Positions 212 to 14,405 of a stretch of DNA of 15,016 nucleotides are shown here, one piece after another. The stretch's first letter is position 1. Every line of letters begins with the position of its first letter. The notes under the pieces are model-generated. The model saw nothing but the letters and a program-made list of their open reading frames with translations, made no database searches and was not told the DNA's origin. The DNA comes from a virus. The stretch is taken from UHGV virus genome UHGV-0154878; one strand, given 5' to 3'. Both the position numbers and the translations under genes were made by a program.

Positions 212-928
212 TCAAACCAGCCTTAGTTTTGTCTCAATTGCAACGCCTATAATCTTGCAGTTTCCATTGATTGGCACGAGAGGCCATGCAGGGTTAAGTC
301 CCTTGAGGTATTTATTTCCGCCGTCGATTATCAGCTTCTTGAATGTTGCTTCGTTAGAGTCAGAAAGTTTTGCTATGACCAAGCTGCCGTTGATCGCCTC
401 CCTTCCGGTATCGAAAAGAACGAATGTTCCCTCTGGAATGCTTAACCCAACCGGTGCCGTCATTGAATCACCTTCCACTTTAAGCCAGAACGCATTACCT
501 TGAATATGCGCGTCAGACTCAAGCCAAACATCTATGTCTTTAATGGTGTATGGTTCGCATGCTTCACACCACGAGCCAGCCTGGATACTGCTTAACACCG
601 GATACCTCTTTCCTGCTCTGTATTCCCCTGCATACCTTACGTTGGCATCGCTCTTAAGGCTTTCTGCCTGTTCTGCAACCTTGGCAGCAATTGACTGGCT
701 AAAATCAGCAATTGAGACTTGCAACAATCGTGCAAAACCAGATGCAACCTCAACGTTTAGCGCATTTCTGCCATTAAGATAATGCCCTACCGCTCCTTGG
801 GTGATACCCAGTTCATCAGCGATTGAGTATTGGGTTATTCCCAATTCTTTCTTTTTTGACTCATACAAAGCCTTAAGCCGCTTAGCGTCTTCGAGCTGTT
901 CTGTCGTCAGTGATTTTTTATTTTCCAT
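212..928 (-). CDS. cI: CI-type prophage repressor (N-terminal HTH, C-terminal S24/LexA-like autocleavage domain)
   Basis: The 238-aa ORF aligns by eye with lambda CI along its length (LTxEQLEDAxRLKAxYExKKxELG...; FWLxVEGxSMTAP; ATFKKLIxD). It is divergent from the cro-like gene across a roughly 100-bp operator region. Confidence 0.93.
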   Translation of the reverse strand: MENKKSLTTEQLEDAKRLKALYESKKKELGITQYSIADELGITQGAVGHYLNGRNALNVEVASGFARLLQVSIADFSQSIAAKVAEQAESLKSDANVRYAGEYRAGKRYPVLSSIQAGSWCEACEPYTIKDIDVWLESDAHIQGNAFWLKVEGDSMTAPVGLSIPEGTFVLFDTGREAINGSLVIAKLSDSNEATFKKLIIDGGNKYLKGLNPAWPLVPINGNCKIIGVAIETKLRLV

Positions 929-7486: not shown

Positions 7487-7671
7487 ACGCCACAATTCAA
7501 ACGATACCAGAGCTTCTTATCCAGACACGAGGCAATCAGACCGAAGTGGCGAGGATGCTTTCCTGCGCAAGAGGAACAGTGCTCAAGTACAACCGAGACA
7601 GCAAAGGCGAGCGTCACGTAATAGTTAACGGCGTCCTGATGGTCAAACAGGGCAAGAGGGGAAGACGATGA
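7483..7671 (+). CDS. ninH: NinH-like protein
   Basis: TIPExLxxxxGNQTEVARxLxCxRGTVxKYxxDxxGxxHxIVNxVLMV matches lambda NinH. Confidence 0.75.
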   Translation: MNATIQTIPELLIQTRGNQTEVARMLSCARGTVLKYNRDSKGERHVIVNGVLMVKQGKRGRR

Positions 7672-8156
7672 GCATAAGAGAACTAAACCTCACCAAAGAG
7701 CAGCACGAGTGGCTGAATGGCTGGCTTGAACTGTGGGGCGCATGGGTTTATTCAGGTCGTCTGGAAAAGCGCATGAGCAGCGTAATAGCGAAGTTCATGG
7801 AGAGCGTAGAGCCGGGAAGAGTTATGACAAGGCCAATGTGCAATGATGATGATGGAATGTTGATTTCTCAGGTCGTCGATTCCGTCATGTACATTGACAA
7901 GAAAGCCTTTGGCATCCTCCTCAGCTACTACGCTCATGGATCTTCCAAGCATGCCATTGCATCTTACTATCATCGCGTCGCAAGACCTCGCAAGATGTTA
8001 TGCCGGGGCGGCGGGCGTATTCAAAAACCATCGCTCGCAACCTGTCGCCGGGAAGTTGACGAAATCCTCAATGCTTCGTTGTTTATGATTTACCCGGTTC
8101 TGGATAGTGCGTTTAAAAACCGGAAACGTGTAGAGAAAATTAAACATGTAGCATAG
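7668..8156 (+). CDS. Q: Late-gene antitermination protein Q (QuuD/Q82-like family)
   Basis: Motifs LELWGAWV and RPMCNDDDGMLI resemble QuuD-type Q proteins. It is the last gene of the nin region and sits immediately upstream of a promoter-like element, tRNA genes and the lysis cassette. Confidence 0.8.
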   Translation: MSIRELNLTKEQHEWLNGWLELWGAWVYSGRLEKRMSSVIAKFMESVEPGRVMTRPMCNDDDGMLISQVVDSVMYIDKKAFGILLSYYAHGSSKHAIASYYHRVARPRKMLCRGGGRIQKPSLATCRREVDEILNASLFMIYPVLDSAFKNRKRVEKIKHVA

Positions 8157-8247: not shown

Positions 8248-8322
8248 GGGTCAGTCGTATAAAGGTCATTACGGAAGGCTGTTAACCTTCTTATCGTGGT
8301 TCGAGTCCACGCTGTCCCGCCA
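8248..8322 (+). tRNA. tRNA with anticodon GTT (Asn), non-canonical (one acceptor-stem mismatch, short D-stem)
   Basis: Hand-folded cloverleaf. Anticodon arm GAAGG-cTGTTaa-CCTTC. T-arm CGTGG-TTCGAGT-CCACG. Acceptor GGGTCAG/CTGTCCC has a T-T mismatch at position 4:69. Discriminator G, then encoded CCA. Confidence 0.6.
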
Positions 8323-8327
8323 AATAT

Positions 8328-8403
8328 GCTGGTTTAGCTCCAATGGTAGAGCGGTCGCCTTGTAAGCGAATGGGTAGCGGTTCAAGTCCGTTAACCAGCA
8401 CCA
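8328..8403 (+). tRNA. tRNA with anticodon TGT (Thr)
   Basis: Perfect 7-bp acceptor stem GCTGGTT/AACCAGC. D-arm GCTC-caatGGta-GAGC. Anticodon loop cTTGTaa. T-arm AGCGG-TTCAAGT-CCGTT. Discriminator A, then encoded CCA. Confidence 0.75.
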
Positions 8404-8645: not shown

Positions 8646-8969
8646 ATGAAGATGCCAGAAAAACATGACCTGTTAGCCGCCATTCTCGCGGCAAAGGAAC
8701 AAGGCATCGGGGCAATCCTTGCGTTTGCAATGGCGTACCTTCGCGGCAGATATAATGGCGGTGCGTTTACAAAAACAGTAATCGACGCAACGATGTGCGC
8801 CATTATCGCCTGGTTCATTCGTGACCTTCTCGACTTCGCCGGACTAAGTAGCAATCTCGCTTATATAACGAGCGTGTTCATCGGCTACATCGGTACTGAC
8901 TCGATTGGTTCGCTTATCAAACGCTTCGCTGCTAAAAAAGCCGGAGTAGAAGATGGTGGAAATCAATAA
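8646..8969 (+). CDS. S: Class I holin, lambda S type, with dual-start motif (Met1-Lys2-Met3)
   Basis: The 107-aa product is almost identical to lambda S as I recall it ([39 protein letters not shown]...). The MKM N-terminus corresponds to the S107 antiholin and S105 holin starts. Confidence 0.95.
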
Positions 8970-9429
8970 TCAACGTAAGGCGTTCCTCGATATGCTGGCG
9001 TGGTCAGAGGGAACTGATAACGGACGTCAGAAAACCAGAAATCATGGTTATGACGTCATTGTTGGCGGAGAGCTATTCACTGATTACTCCGATCACCCTC
9101 GCAAACTTGTCACGCTAAACCCCAAACTCAAATCAACAGCAGCCGGACGTTACCAGCTTCTTTCCCGTTGGTGGGATGCCTATCGTAAGCAGCTTGGCCT
9201 GAAAGACTTCTCTCCGAAAAGCCAGGACGCTGTGGCATTGCAGCAGATTAAAGAGCGTGGCGCTTTACCGATGATTGATCGCGGTGATATCCGTCAGGCT
9301 ATCGATCGTTGCAGCAATATCTGGGCGTCGTTACCTGGTGCAGGTTACGGTCAGTATGAACATAAAATCGGTGACCTGATTGCCCGATTTAAAGAGGCTG
9401 GTGGGGTGGTAAATGAAGTTGAGCTATAA
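8953..9429 (+). CDS. R: Endolysin, lambda R-type lytic transglycosylase
   Basis: The 158-aa product is near-identical to lambda R through most of its length ([51 protein letters not shown]...) and diverges only in the last residues. Confidence 0.95.
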
Positions 9430-9805
9430 GCTGGTTATCGCTGCATTCTTCTTTACTGTCATCGGTTCTTTCATCTGGTCTGCCAACCACTACTACAGCA
9501 AATATCAGCACGAAAAGAAACGTGCTGATGAGGCTGTACAAAATGCCAAATCGGCAACTGTCATTACCAATAACGTCCTGCAATCACTGCAAATCGTCAA
9601 TACAGTTCTGGAGGCTAACCAGCATGCAAAACAGCAGATCACACTGGAGTCACAGAGAACCGAGAACGATATCAAGGCTGCTGTTGCGGATGATGATTGT
9701 GCTGTTCGTTTTGTGCCTTCTGGCGCAGTTAAGCGGCTGCACGACTACGCGAACGGTCTACGTTCCAGTTCCGGTGGTTCCGTTACCAGCCAACCTGACG
9801 GCTGA
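9413..9805 (+). CDS. Rz: Rz-like inner-membrane spanin (i-spanin), not lambda-type
   Basis: N-terminal transmembrane helix LVIAAFFFTVIGSFIW followed by a charged, probably coiled-coil periplasmic region. Sits directly after the endolysin and overlaps its 3' end by 17 nt. Confidence 0.6.
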   Translation: MKLSYKLVIAAFFFTVIGSFIWSANHYYSKYQHEKKRADEAVQNAKSATVITNNVLQSLQIVNTVLEANQHAKQQITLESQRTENDIKAAVADDDCAVRFVPSGAVKRLHDYANGLRSSSGGSVTSQPDG

Positions 9806-9968
9806 AACACCGCAGCCAGACTTACCCGACCCGTTTACGTGGGGAGCAAGTCTTGACCTGAATGTCGCATTGCTGTCAGCGCTGGCGCAGTGCAACAGGG
9901 ATAAGGCTGATATCAGGATTTTCGAGAACAACAGGGCAGGACAAACCGATGGCACGATTAAACGTTGA
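9690..9968 (+). CDS. Rz1: Rz1-like outer-membrane lipoprotein spanin (o-spanin), overlapped in the +1 frame and extending past the Rz stop
   Basis: Signal peptide plus lipobox MMIVLFVLCLLAQLSGC, followed by the proline-rich stretch TVYVPVPVVPLPANL typical of Rz1. The start lies inside Rz in a different frame. Confidence 0.55.
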   Translation: MMIVLFVLCLLAQLSGCTTTRTVYVPVPVVPLPANLTAETPQPDLPDPFTWGASLDLNVALLSALAQCNRDKADIRIFENNRAGQTDGTIKR

Positions 9969-10134
9969 AGTTATCCCACCAGACAGCGAGGTGCTGAACG
10001 GGATTTTTGCAGAGATTGAGCGCAAATATGCGCGTCAGCCGCTGACGCCAAAAGTAATTGATGAAATGCAACGCGAAGTGGCGCGCCTTGTGCGGCGAAT
10101 GATAACCACAAAGGTTACGTTCGTCCGGGACTGA
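9949..10134 (+). CDS. Hypothetical small protein (61 aa)
   Basis: ATG 9949 with AGGGCAGGA upstream. Followed by a hairpin at 10142-10164. No recognisable family. Confidence 0.35.
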   Translation: MARLNVEVIPPDSEVLNGIFAEIERKYARQPLTPKVIDEMQREVARLVRRMITTKVTFVRD

Positions 10135-10188
10135 CATTACAGAAGCCCTTCACTGAGGGGCTTCGATAATGGAGCACTGGAATTATTC

Positions 10189-10809
10189 ATGAACAGACCA
10201 CACCCACCAGCGCATTTTACGATGCCACCTGACCCGAAGCCGTACATCAGCATTATGCCCGCTAATGACGTTGGCGAGTGGCTGAATCAGCACATCCTGA
10301 GCGATGAGGGTGACCTCTACAACCCTGACCACCAGCATTTGCTTGAAGCGGATCTGTGCTTTCTCTGGGCGTCGAACGCTTTCGAGAAGAAAGGGCGTTC
10401 CGTGCTGGGGCAGGCGGAAGAAGTGGCAATGCGTGCCGGAGGCTGGCAGAAAGCGCGGATGGAGCAGCAGATGTATGAATGGTTCGGCAGGGTGCCGCAG
10501 TTCATCATCACGCTGGCCGCTGATTACTGCTCGCAATGTTCCGATCTGGAATTCTGCGCGCTGATAGAGCACGAGCTTTATCACATTTGCCAGGCGACAG
10601 ATGAATTTGGCGCGCCGAAGTTCACGCAGGAAGGGCAGCCAAAGCTGAAGCTGCGCGGCCATGACGTGGAAGAGTTTGTGGGCGTGGTTCGCCGTTACGG
10701 TGCGAGCCGGGACGTGCAGGAAATGATTGATGCGGCGAATCAGCCAGCGGAGGTTGCTCATCTCGATATTGCCAGAGCGTGCGGGACGTGCATGCTGCGA
10801 CTGGCTTAA
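10189..10809 (+). CDS. Putative zinc metallopeptidase-like protein (HExxH motif), possibly of the phage 'putative peptidase' family
   Basis: EHELYH motif in a 206-aa ORF co-oriented with all flanking late genes. The overlapping - strand ORF (10183-10878) has antisense-type composition. Family assignment is from memory and unverified. Confidence 0.5.
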   Translation: MNRPHPPAHFTMPPDPKPYISIMPANDVGEWLNQHILSDEGDLYNPDHQHLLEADLCFLWASNAFEKKGRSVLGQAEEVAMRAGGWQKARMEQQMYEWFGRVPQFIITLAADYCSQCSDLEFCALIEHELYHICQATDEFGAPKFTQEGQPKLKLRGHDVEEFVGVVRRYGASRDVQEMIDAANQPAEVAHLDIARACGTCMLRLA

Positions 10810-10840: not shown

Positions 10841-11314
10841 ATGGCTGCATTAAAACCTGATGTGAAAGCCTTCATCATTCAGTCGCTTGCGTGCTATGAC
10901 ACGCCATCGCAGGTGGTCGAGGCTGTCCAAAAAGAATTCGGGATCAAGATCACCCGCCAGCAGGCTGAATCTCACGACCCCACGAAGGCCAGCGGTAAGA
11001 CGCTCGCCAAAAAGTGGATCGAGATGTTCCACGCGACGCGCGAACGGTTCCTGACCGAAACCAGCGACATTCCGATCGCGAACAAATCCTATCGCCTCCG
11101 CGTGCTTGACCGCATGGCAACCAAAACCGAGGGGATGAAAAACTTCTCCCTGACGGCGCAGCTGATTGAACAGGCCGCGAAAGAGGTTGGCGACGCTTAC
11201 ACCAATAAGCTGAAGGTTGAGAGCACTGGCAAGGATGGCGGCCCGATCAAGACCGAGACGACCAACCTCACCGCAGATCAGGCCGCAGAGATTTACCGCA
11301 AGATGATGGGGTGA
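10841..11314 (+). CDS. Putative terminase small subunit (DUF2280-like)
   Basis: 157-aa ORF immediately upstream of the large terminase subunit, with an overlapping stop. The N-terminal region looks like a DNA-binding domain. Assignment is by position and weak recollection. Confidence 0.5.
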
Positions 11315-11316
11315 TC

Positions 11317-12939
11317 ATGCCTCTCCCGTTTGAATTCGATTTCAGAAACCCTGATTACCAGATGGTTTTTGAATGGCGGATGGAGCGCTTACAGCGCATT
11401 CGCCAGAACCCTGAAATGCTGCCAGCGCTAAAGCAGTTTTACCGCACCAACCCGGCACAGTTCATCATCGACTGGGGTATGACTACTGACCCGCGTAACA
11501 TCGATTATGGCCTGCCGGTCACCATCCCTTTTCTGCTGTTCCCGAAACAGGAAGAGTGGATTCACTGGATCATGGAGCGGCGCGAACGACTGGAGAACGG
11601 CATCACCGAAAAGAGCCGCGAAATGGGGCTCAGCTGGACGGCGATCGGGCTGGCCTGTTCGCTCTGCCTCTTCAACAAAGAAATGGTTATCGGTTTCGGC
11701 TCCCGTAAAGAGGAATACGTCGACAGCACCGGTGACCCGAAGGCGCTGTTCTGGAAGGCGCGAAAGTTCGTGGAAACACTGCCCATCGAGTTTCGTGGTT
11801 CGTGGGACGAGAAGAAGCATGCGCCGTATATGCGCGTTGAGTTTCCAGATACTGGCGCGGTTATCAAAGGCGAGGCTGGCGACAATATCGGACGTGGTGA
11901 CCGTACCACGCTCTACCTGGTGGATGAAGCTGCATTCCTCCAGCGTCCTCTGTTGATTGATGCGGCGCTGTCGCAAACCACCCGTTGCCGTATTGACCTG
12001 AGCTCGGTTAATGGCATGGCGAACCCGTTCGCGCAGAAGCGCCACGGCGGAAAAATACCAGTATTCACATTCCACTGGCGAGATGACCCGCGCAAGGATG
12101 AAGAGTGGTATCGCAGGGAGTGCGAGAAAATCGACAATCCGGTGGTGGTGGCGCAGGAACTTGACCTGAACTACAGCGCATCTGCGGAAGGCGTCCTGAT
12201 CCCGTCCGACTGGGTACAGGCTGCCGTCGACGCGCATATCAAACTTGGTATTCAGCCAACGGGCAAGCGACTTGGCGCGATGGACGTCGCCGACGAAGGC
12301 CGGGACAAAAATGCCTTTTCGACCCGTCACGGCTTCCTTCTGGAGAACGTGCGTGAATGGTCCGGCGTGGGCAGCGACATTTACCAGTCCGTTGAGAAGG
12401 TCTTCGGCTTTTGCGAACAGGACAACCTCGAAGAGTTTCGCTTCGACGAGGACGGCCTGGGTGCTGGCGTTCGCGGCGATGCGCGCGCCATCAACGAACT
12501 GCGTAACGCTGCGCGCCGACCGTCAATACTCGCCACACCGTTTCGTGGTAGCGGCGCGGTATTTGATCCGGACGATGAAGCGGTGCGCGGGGACAACGGA
12601 CAGGCCGCACGCCTGAACAAGGACTTCTTCGCCAACGCCAAGGCCCAGAGCTGGTGGTGGCTACGCAAGCTTTTCCAGAACACCTATCGCGCCGTGGTTG
12701 AGGGCATGGCCTACAACCCGGACGAAATCATCTCAATCAGCAGCGCCATGGCGAGCAAAGACAAACTCATCATCGAGCTGTCGCAGCCGACCTACTCCAT
12801 TAACGGCGTGGGGAAAATCGTTGTTGATAAACAGCCTGACGGCACCAAGTCGCCGAACCTCGCCGACTCGGTGATGATCAGCTACGCGCCAATGAATTCA
12901 GCCCTGAACATCTGGGAGCTGCTAGGGAGACAGGCCTGA
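11317..12939 (+). CDS. Terminase large subunit
   Basis: About 540 aa with ATPase and nuclease-type architecture (LYLVDEAAF Walker B-like segment), positioned between the small terminase and portal. GGGG Shine-Dalgarno 6 nt before ATG 11317; GTG 11311 is the alternative start. Confidence 0.85.
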
Positions 12940-14405
12940 TGGCACGAAACAAGCAATCCTCTCAGCGAACGGCACAGCCCACCGCTGACGGCTACGAGAA
13001 CTTCGTCGCCCGCGTTGGGATGCAGACGCCTAACCAGCATTCAGCATCGACCTACCGGGCGAACTTCACCAGCCGCAACCGCATGCTGGTGGAATGGTCA
13101 TATCGCGGTTCGTGGGTTATCGGTGAAGCGGTCGACGCTATCCCGGACGATATGACCCGAAAGGGCATTCGCATCACTTCGGAGATTGACGCCAAAGACC
13201 GTGGCACCCTCGAAGCGCAACTGGATGAGTTGCAGATCTGGGATGCGCTGAACGACGTGCTGAAATGGTCGCGCCTCTACGGCGGCGCGGTCGGCTTCAT
13301 CATGATCGAGGGGCAAGCACCAATGACCCCGCTGCGACTCGAAACCATTGGCGAGGGCAAGTTTAAGGGCATTCTCCCGCTCGACCGCTGGATGATTAAC
13401 CCGGTGCTGACACGCCGCATTAAAGAGATGGGGCCGGACCTCGGCAAGCCTGAGTTTTACGACGTGGTGACCACCGCAACGGGCATTCCGGCCTGGCGCA
13501 TCCATCACAGCCGCCTGATCCGCTTTGATGGCGTCACGCTGCCATTCCAGCAGAAGATGACCGAAAACGAATGGGGAATGTCGGTTGTAGAGCGTATCTG
13601 GGATCGGCTTACTGCGTTCGATAGCGCTACTGTCGGCGCGGCGCAGCTGGTCTATAAAGCGCATCTGCGTACCTATAGCGTGGAGAAGTTGCGCGAGCTT
13701 ATCGCGCTTGGAGGCCCGGCGTTCGAAGCGTTGCTGAAGAACATCGACCTGATCCGCCAGTTCCAGAGCAATGAAGGTATGACGCTCATGGACTCGCGGG
13801 ATAAGTTCGAAACCCACCAGTACAGCTTTAGTGGTCTGGATGACATTCTTTCGCAGTTTGCTGAGCAGATCAGCGGTGCCGTTGGTATCCCGCTGGTACG
13901 CCTGTTCGGTCAATCCCCGAAAGGCTTCTCTACTGGTGATGCAGACCTCGCCAACTATTACGACCGGGTGAGCTCATTGCAGGAGCGCCGCTTACGGCTG
14001 CCGATGCGCCGGATACTGGACATTATGCACCGCTCGGAACTCGGAAAGCCGCTGCCGGACGATTTCACGTTTGAGTTTAACCCGCTATGGCAAATGTCAG
14101 ACGTTGACCGATCAACGGTGGCCGTAAACACCACCAACGCGATCAGTACCGCGCTGGGCGACGGATTGATGACGCGTAAGGCGGCGATGACCGACCTGCG
14201 CGAAAACTCTGACGTCACCGGCATCGGGGCATCCATTACCGACGAGGACATAGAGAATGCCGAAGACGAAGCGCCGCCAGGCATCGGCGAACTTGGCGAC
14301 AAACCGCCAGAGTCGCCAGGCGGAGATCCGATATCGAACGAGCCTACGGCAGATAGCGCGGGCGGTCGGGGATATCGTAAATGGGCGCTACGATGGTTCA
14401 AATGA
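12939..14405 (+). CDS. Portal protein (DUF1073-type), with an acidic, Gly/Pro-rich C-terminal tail
   Basis: 488-aa ORF immediately after the large terminase (ATGA overlap) and before a head morphogenesis gene. Confidence 0.8.
   Translation: MARNKQSSQRTAQPTADGYENFVARVGMQTPNQHSASTYRANFTSRNRMLVEWSYRGSWVIGEAVDAIPDDMTRKGIRITSEIDAKDRGTLEAQLDELQIWDALNDVLKWSRLYGGAVGFIMIEGQAPMTPLRLETIGEGKFKGILPLDRWMINPVLTRRIKEMGPDLGKPEFYDVVTTATGIPAWRIHHSRLIRFDGVTLPFQQKMTENEWGMSVVERIWDRLTAFDSATVGAAQLVYKAHLRTYSVEKLRELIALGGPAFEALLKNIDLIRQFQSNEGMTLMDSRDKFETHQYSFSGLDDILSQFAEQISGAVGIPLVRLFGQSPKGFSTGDADLANYYDRVSSLQERRLRLPMRRILDIMHRSELGKPLPDDFTFEFNPLWQMSDVDRSTVAVNTTNAISTALGDGLMTRKAAMTDLRENSDVTGIGASITDEDIENAEDEAPPGIGELGDKPPESPGGDPISNEPTADSAGGRGYRKWALRWFK

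Follow-up and report, generated by a model that had tools for sequence, protein, structure and literature searches.

The window analysed here is the complete 15,016-nucleotide stretch of UHGV virus genome UHGV-0154878, which is the right half of a lambdoid temperate phage or prophage. Between its lysis and packaging genes lie two open reading frames (ORFs) on the plus strand, one of 61 amino acids (aa) at positions 9949–10134 and one of 206 aa at 10189–10809, with a stem-loop at 10135–10171 on the same strand between them. The 206-aa gene is followed, also on the plus strand, by genes for a DUF2280 protein (10841–11314), which corresponds to the small terminase (TerS), and for the large terminase (TerL, 11311–12939). 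A preliminary description of the locus had placed both ORFs where they are found here, had read the 206-aa protein as a metallopeptidase from an EHELYH motif, and had regarded both ORFs as accessory genes in a variable slot behind the lysis cassette. The accessory-gene idea applies to the 61-aa ORF and not to the 206-aa gene, which is the conserved first gene of the terminase operon and is inherited together with the N-terminal domain of the DUF2280 protein as one cassette.

Genomic position and co-inheritance with the terminase

Related loci were searched for with an alignment of nine sequences of PF18894, the Pfam family of the 206-aa protein, and 250 loci were gathered from IMG/VR, GTDB genomes, and GenBank, of which 248 were usable in that they contain a PF18894 gene with room downstream. 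In all but one of these (247/248) the PF18894 gene lies directly upstream of a small-terminase gene. The next gene on the same strand encodes a DUF2280 protein in 242 of the 248 loci, at a median gap of 31 bp, and in five others (L188, L200, L209, L213, and L214) a different small-terminase-like gene comes next, followed by TerL. The position is kept down to ∼40% identity and over many host genera, and annotated phages of Pectobacterium, Pseudomonas, Acinetobacter, Vibrio, and Rhizobium have the fixed order PF18894, DUF2280, TerL, portal, with different genes upstream of PF18894 in each of them. Counted per genus, the GenBank phage records for DUF2280 and PF18894 stand at 62/62 in Acinetobacter, 44/44 in Pseudomonas, 8/8 in Vibrio, and 7/7 in Burkholderia.

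The pairwise identities of the peptidase follow those of the DUF2280 N-domain closely (Spearman 0.835), with lower correlations for the C-terminal tail of TerS (0.456), TerL (0.236), and the upstream gene (0.087). Among locus pairs with 70–85% identical peptidases, the DUF2280 N-domains are related in 100%, the TerLs in 17%, and the upstream genes in 1%, and the downstream TerLs belong to several families, including Terminase_3, Terminase_6, and unclassified proteins. The PF18894 gene is thereby tied to one type of small terminase, as a fixed partner and not as a movable accessory gene. On the upstream side, homology to Citrobacter phage Omnitron (99%, megablast) starts at ∼10135, just past the 61-aa ORF, and the GC content rises from 0.44–0.52 in the lysis genes to 0.55–0.60 from ∼10250 on, which is the level of the packaging genes. 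The promoter scan revealed no promoter-like site near the 206-aa gene.

A natural swap of the cassette is seen in E. coli phage vB_EcoM-606R2, the TerL of which is 96% identical to that of the window. The small subunit of this phage is a bona fide Terminase_2 protein, encoded directly after Rz with no PF18894 gene present, and over the last 39 residues this subunit shares 64% identity with the tail of the window's DUF2280 protein. Since a Terminase_2 TerS working with a 96%-identical TerL has this tail too, the sequence relationships identify the DUF2280 protein as the small terminase, and the swap itself shows that the peptidase gene and the DUF2280 N-domain form a replaceable cassette that is dispensable for TerL, portal, and head. 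The DUF2280 domain, which is passed on together with the peptidase gene as one unit, comprises TerS residues 1–102 (10841–11146, plus strand) and is presumably the DNA-recognition domain, whereas the C-terminal tail, residues 119–157 (11195–11314, plus strand), is probably the TerL-binding segment. The window TerS is itself a mosaic, the DUF2280 N-domain and the 39-residue tail having different histories (in comparison with L257, 3048–3620), and this mosaicism fits a TerL-binding tail joined to an exchangeable DNA-recognition domain. The stop codon of the TerS gene overlaps the start of the TerL gene (11311). Searches of the PDB with DUF2280, by sequence and by profile, gave no match.

Family, conserved residues, and predicted fold of the 206-aa protein

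The profile search that the preliminary description had called for places the 206-aa protein in Pfam family PF18894 (PhageMetallopep, "putative phage metallopeptidase") with an E value of 2e-43 and 148.1 bits, compared with a gathering cut-off of 23.7 bits, and the protein covers positions 2–134 of the 134 profile positions. By this match it is a member of a named, already known family of phage zinc peptidase-like proteins. The public databases hold 99–100% identical proteins under the same name, e.g. the RefSeq "putative metallopeptidase" WP_001567573.1, and there is no difference at the sequence level between the window protein and PF18894 as represented by this entry. The family comprises 3501 clusters at 90% identity and ∼900 at 50%, and the temperate phages and prophages that carry it come from Escherichia, Klebsiella, Salmonella, Pseudomonas, Acinetobacter, Burkholderia, and Vibrio. 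A sequence search of PDB chains with the 206-aa protein gave no match, even at E 10, and NCBIfam gave none for the four proteins tried.

Conservation was analysed in an alignment of 84 diverse full-length representatives, which includes the window protein and in which the others are 33–53% identical to it. Seven residues are invariant across the alignment (H128, E129, H132, H158, G171, C198, and G199), four more are kept in at least 95% of the homologues (H48, H50, D159, and E161), and C201 is present in 75 of the 84. The conserved residues are grouped in a few motifs, all encoded on the plus strand: the strongly conserved N-terminus M-x-R-P-x-P-P (residues 1–7, 10189–10209), D-H-x-H-L with H48 and H50 (10327–10341), E-H-E-L-Y-H at the end of helix 119–131 (10567–10584), which is the predicted HExxH zinc-binding and catalytic motif and is encoded as first described, G-H-D-V-E-E-F with H158, D159, and E161 (10657–10677), and C-G-T-C with C198, G199, and C201 (10780–10791). 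The invariant His, H158, follows HExxH by 25–27 residues throughout the family and is a candidate for the third zinc ligand. H48 and H50 together with C198 and C201 are candidates for a second, structural metal site of the His2Cys2 type.

The structure of the 206-aa protein was predicted with AlphaFold2, a step also proposed at the outset, and a confident model was obtained with a predicted local distance difference test (pLDDT) of 93.7 and a predicted template modelling score (pTM) of 0.86. The modelled layout is that of a zincin, with a β-sheet, a backing helix, and an active-site helix that ends in HExxH. The closest structural matches of the zincin core are the minigluzincins and Spartan/Wss1, and the best matches are peptidases. 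The protein is acidic, with an isoelectric point (pI) of 5.1 compared with a family median of 5.5, and is predicted to be a peptidase-like, soluble, acidic zinc metallohydrolase with a zincin (minigluzincin-like) core. The metallopeptidase reading of the preliminary description is thereby sustained as a prediction by the PF18894 match, the zincin model, and the invariant HExxH and H158. That description had also named two outcomes that would have spoken against it, the lack of a conserved third ligand or peptidase fold and an incidental HExxH; H158 is invariant and a zincin fold is predicted, and an incidental motif is contradicted by its invariance over ∼40%-identical homologues. The N-terminal MxRPxPP is modelled at a pLDDT of ∼94, with lower confidence for residues 11–20, and by analogy with the self-inhibiting tail of proabylysin it might be located in or near the active-site cleft.

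In about one-quarter of the PF18894 representatives the N-terminus is extended by a conserved stretch of some 45 residues or more, with the pattern Y[ST]xExKxxALxxLxxxxGDxxxAAKxxxVPxxxLxxW. In per-member scans at relaxed E values, the extensions of single members match HTH_8, MerR, HTH_Tnp_1, and HTH_28 with best E values of 3e-5 to 2e-4, and because of these matches the extension is taken to be a helix-turn-helix (HTH) DNA-binding domain. Scanned against Pfam at E < 0.01, the long forms matched PF18894 only, and homology of the HTH extension to DUF2280 was rejected by hhalign. No copy was found in the 250 loci with a hidden Markov model of the extension, and the long-form loci were traced via the contigs that encode them; the long forms also keep their place upstream of TerS. 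Going by these domain matches, the HTH fusion links the PF18894 family to DNA-bound targets. Whereas the family and its name are known, the searchable literature yielded no description of PF18894 at the head of the terminase operon, of its coupling to DUF2280, or of the HTH-fused forms.

The 61-aa ORF, the stem-loop, and the flanking genes

The 61-aa ORF matches phrog_12811 from end to end (E value 2e-34) and has 37 homologue clusters in Enterobacteriaceae, nearly all of 60–61 aa. Compared with divergent copies, its differences number 35–36 at third, 15–17 at first, and 7–10 at second codon positions, and the phrog_12811 match, the conserved length of the homologues, and this third-position bias together indicate a real gene. 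The encoded protein is basic (pI 9.5) and is modelled as a β-α-α-β fold with a pLDDT of 94.4; a structural search with the model gave no informative match. The start of the ORF overlaps the last 20 nt of Rz1 (which ends at 9968), suggesting that it is translationally coupled to the lysis cassette. The ORF is present in 7 of the first 168 loci, each time just before the hairpin, and in related prophages its slot is filled by other genes. It is a separate small gene, unrelated to the 206-aa gene, in a truly variable post-lysis slot, and its patchy presence and the alternative contents of the slot agree with the part of the preliminary description that placed accessory genes there. In phage EKP1, a homologue is located near an integrase and away from any terminase. 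This Elizabethkingia phage (L256, 1–4703; recorded host Bacteroidota) has the 68%-identical 61-aa homologue beside a holin/lysozyme/Rz cassette and the integrase, and the host assignment or the origin of the record may be questionable.

A metagenomic phage that encodes a long-form peptidase (L252, 1138–3433) has, a few genes upstream of it, a gene of the Acb5 family, a Pfam name that suggests anti-CBASS, and two N6_N4 DNA methyltransferase genes. Judged by such family assignments, counter-defence-type genes appear to cluster in the variable region just upstream of the packaging module.

The hairpin between the two ORFs had been described as a 7-bp stem at 10142–10164 without a U-tract. Its location and the absence of a U-tract after it agree with our analysis, and the stem is longer than was stated, with 10 pairs including one G-U pair (10142–10151 with 10155–10164) around an ACU loop. 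A further outer stem of 5 pairs is formed by 10135–10139 with 10167–10171. The folding energy over 71 nt is −28.6 kcal/mol (z = −5.5), and none of 200 shuffles folds as well. The hairpin is not called by the terminator scan, and an intrinsic (rho-independent) terminator was rejected since the stem is present with no T-run. Its core CATTACAG...CGATAATG recurs in 14 loci with both flanks variable, and in three loci (L014, L091, and L117) another gene comes after it. A true terminator, GAGCCTCGC...GCGGGGCTTTTTT, occupies the position of the hairpin in L134, and in several unrelated relatives the peptidase gene is closely preceded by a terminator-like hairpin with a T-run. Pairing is kept in 93% of cells compared with 31–54% for slid controls; covariation is not significant, with only 2 compensatory pairs, a number matched by 101 of 500 shuffles, and no Rfam family matches the hairpin. 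The hairpin sits at the mosaic joint where the Omnitron homology starts, and we read it as a conserved module-boundary stem-loop at a recombination joint that is not specific to these two ORFs. It is possibly a weakened terminator or an element of transcript processing or stability.

The remainder of the window begins with a cI-like repressor gene (212–928, minus strand), next to which are the replication and Nin-region genes, followed by the antiterminator Q gene (7668–8156). At the start of the late operon, between Q and the holin gene, are two tRNA genes on the plus strand, tRNA-Asn(GTT) at 8248–8322 and tRNA-Thr(TGT) at 8328–8403. The lysis cassette upstream of both ORFs comprises holin (8646–8969), endolysin (8953–9429), Rz (9413–9805), and the embedded Rz1 lipoprotein, or o-spanin, with the lipobox LSGC (9690–9968). 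The gene after TerL (12939–14405, plus strand) is a probable portal gene, as indicated by its position and by the portal annotation of the equivalent genes in related phages. TerL gave no Pfam match at E < 0.01 and only a moderate match to PHROG 2; the TerLs of ZF40 and Vibrio phage PP270 are likewise without a Pfam match, and the lineage of the window TerL appears to be poorly covered by Pfam. E. coli chromosomes hold DNA that is 96–98% identical to the window, in which RefSeq labels the 206-aa gene "putative metallopeptidase" and the 61-aa ORF "hypothetical protein". In the closest of these prophages (L007, E. coli AW1.7) the annotation gives the Q gene (L007 565–1053) as a pseudogene interrupted by an internal stop, and this prophage may therefore be defective for late transcription.

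Proposed role in packaging and likeness to known systems

The chances seem to us evenly balanced that the PF18894 protein is a late-expressed zinc protease acting with the small terminase at packaging initiation. The gene would be transcribed as part of the late operon, the acidic peptidase could dock on the basic TerS, or in the long forms bind DNA via its own HTH domain, and the protease could go on to cut TerS itself or some other protein occupying the packaging site. Docking on TerS fits better than direct DNA binding because the core of the peptidase is acidic and the window TerS is basic (pI 9.1). The scheme builds on what was found for the PF18894 gene, namely the family and fold class of its product, the conserved catalytic residues, the synteny, the co-inheritance, and the natural cassette swap, and from these we infer metal binding, proteolysis, the substrate, the TerS contact, and the packaging requirement. 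More tentatively, PF18894 might be an unrecognized third component of a widespread terminase class, a zinc protease that partners the DUF2280 DNA-recognition domain and is needed to start or regulate packaging. Such a component would, for instance, process TerS or clear protein from the packaging site.

Several points tell against a packaging role of this kind. The loci are phylogenetically clustered, mostly in Enterobacterales and Pseudomonas, and their counts overstate the number of independent observations. The sole exception among the 248 loci, Bordetella phage PHB04, has no adjacent TerS and no DUF2280 gene, and its PF18894 gene lies ∼2.8 kb upstream of TerL. In 181 Salinibacter ruber phages, DUF2280, TerL, and portal genes are present without a PF18894 gene, from which it follows that a DUF2280-type TerS can work without PF18894; the coupling of the two is very strong, not obligatory. 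The tight linkage could also reflect a cis effect, e.g. a pac site in or near the gene, rather than a functional partnership. That the core is acidic speaks against direct binding to DNA as in Spartan and Wss1, and a search of the literature revealed no functional work on PF18894, on DUF2280 together with the terminase, or on a metallopeptidase together with a small terminase. The Salinibacter phages constitute a natural control for the question whether DUF2280 terminases need the peptidase. In Salinibacter phage 4_20 (L170, 3432–7571) and its 180 sister records, the TerL-like protein has 540 aa, and the product of the gene preceding DUF2280 is membrane-like and has no HExxH.

It is rather unlikely that the 206-aa protein is instead an accessory counter-defence or host-directed protease, perhaps packaged and injected in the manner of ArdC-type anti-restriction metalloproteases, that is kept by TerS through a cis-acting packaging site or mere proximity. 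The presence of the gene is constant rather than patchy, its position is the same in 247 of the 248 loci, and it stays in place while the genes upstream of it turn over completely. It has no promoter of its own and shares the GC content of the packaging genes, and on these features, together with the constant position and the co-variation with TerS, classification as a moron was rejected, which removes the 206-aa gene from the accessory genes of the preliminary description. A hitchhiker on a pac site would not be expected to remain directly upstream of TerS even where the type of TerS differs, as this gene does, and the repeats found around the peptidase and TerS genes as possible marks of such a site are short, chance-level matches only. 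The PADLOC defence-protein library returned noise only for the 206-aa protein, although anti-defence proteins are outside the coverage of this library.

Improbable, too, is a non-peptidase metallohydrolase, such as a nuclease that aids cutting by the terminase from a position analogous to that of the HNH endonucleases of HK97-like phages. All 84 aligned sequences have the Glu of HExxH, as peptidases do, whereas YbeY-type sites are not known to have it; the best structural matches are peptidases, the core is acidic, and the TerLs of this group have RNase H-like nuclease domains of their own. An HNH-type nuclease in particular was rejected, there being no HNH Pfam match and a zincin fold, with only the genomic position analogous. 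We see a slim chance that the protein is a regulatory protease of the ImmA/IrrE/CapP kind, which would cleave a DNA-bound HTH regulator other than TerS to time late events or lysogeny decisions. Such a role is at odds with the lack of a Pfam match to Peptidase_M78/ImmA, with the location of the gene in the late operon after the lysis genes, distant from the immunity region at 212–928, and with its constant neighbor, which is the terminase and not a repressor. Least credible, and very improbable in our estimate, is a catalytically inert structural or assembly protein with a chance HExxH, or a transposase. The latter has in its favor the label "transposase" that the protein receives through PHROG 513 and that is copied in the records of ZF40 gp39, JBD44 gp16, phiPSA1, vB_AbaS_TRS1, and others, as well as the weak likeness of the long-form HTH to HTH_Tnp_1. 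A transposase identity was rejected since no transposase or recombinase catalytic domain was found in Pfam scans of short or long forms and the fold is that of a zincin, and the label most likely arose from the HTH_Tnp_1-like domain of the long forms and spread by annotation transfer. For an inert protein, the conservation of HExxH, H158, and the surrounding residues over distant homologues would be hard to explain.

If the protease acting with TerS does take part in packaging, a well-studied molecular machine would gain a component of a new kind, and the recognition of this component would parallel the finding that HNH endonucleases belong to other packaging machines. An explanation would then also be at hand for a gene that many phage genomes, those of phage-therapy candidates among them, list as "hypothetical", "transposase", or "accessory". 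The natural cassette swap and the availability of inducible prophages make the packaging question directly testable, and a packaging role, once demonstrated, would be of clear interest to phage biologists.

Compared with known systems, the 206-aa protein shares 10–15% sequence identity with the minigluzincins projannalysin, proabylysin, and selecase and with M48/M56 peptidases. The minigluzincins have a compact catalytic domain of ∼100 residues, whereas the 206-aa protein is about twice this size, with further elements at both termini and probably a second metal site, and it comes from a phage packaging operon rather than being an archaeal or membrane protease. In Wss1 the zinc ligands are provided by HExxH and a His 6 residues later, HExxHxxxxxH (PMC5557861). 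The invariant His of the 206-aa protein, in contrast to that of Wss1/Spartan, lies 25–27 residues after HExxH, and the core is acidic; membership in the WLM/SprT group was rejected, with no His 6 residues past HExxH and no Pfam match to WLM or SprT. ImmA/IrrE and ArdC are likewise metalloproteases paired or fused with DNA-binding modules in mobile elements, but there is no family-level sequence match between them and the 206-aa protein, the gene for which is located in a late packaging operon rather than in an immunity or leading region. The likeness to the HNH endonucleases of HK97-like, GVE2, and Skunavirus phages is one of arrangement, in that a small metal-dependent enzyme, predicted in the case of PF18894, is encoded alongside the terminase genes and adds a further component to the packaging module. 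The HNH enzymes are ββα-metal nucleases, whereas PF18894 is a predicted zincin with a catalytic Glu, for which a role in packaging is proposed.

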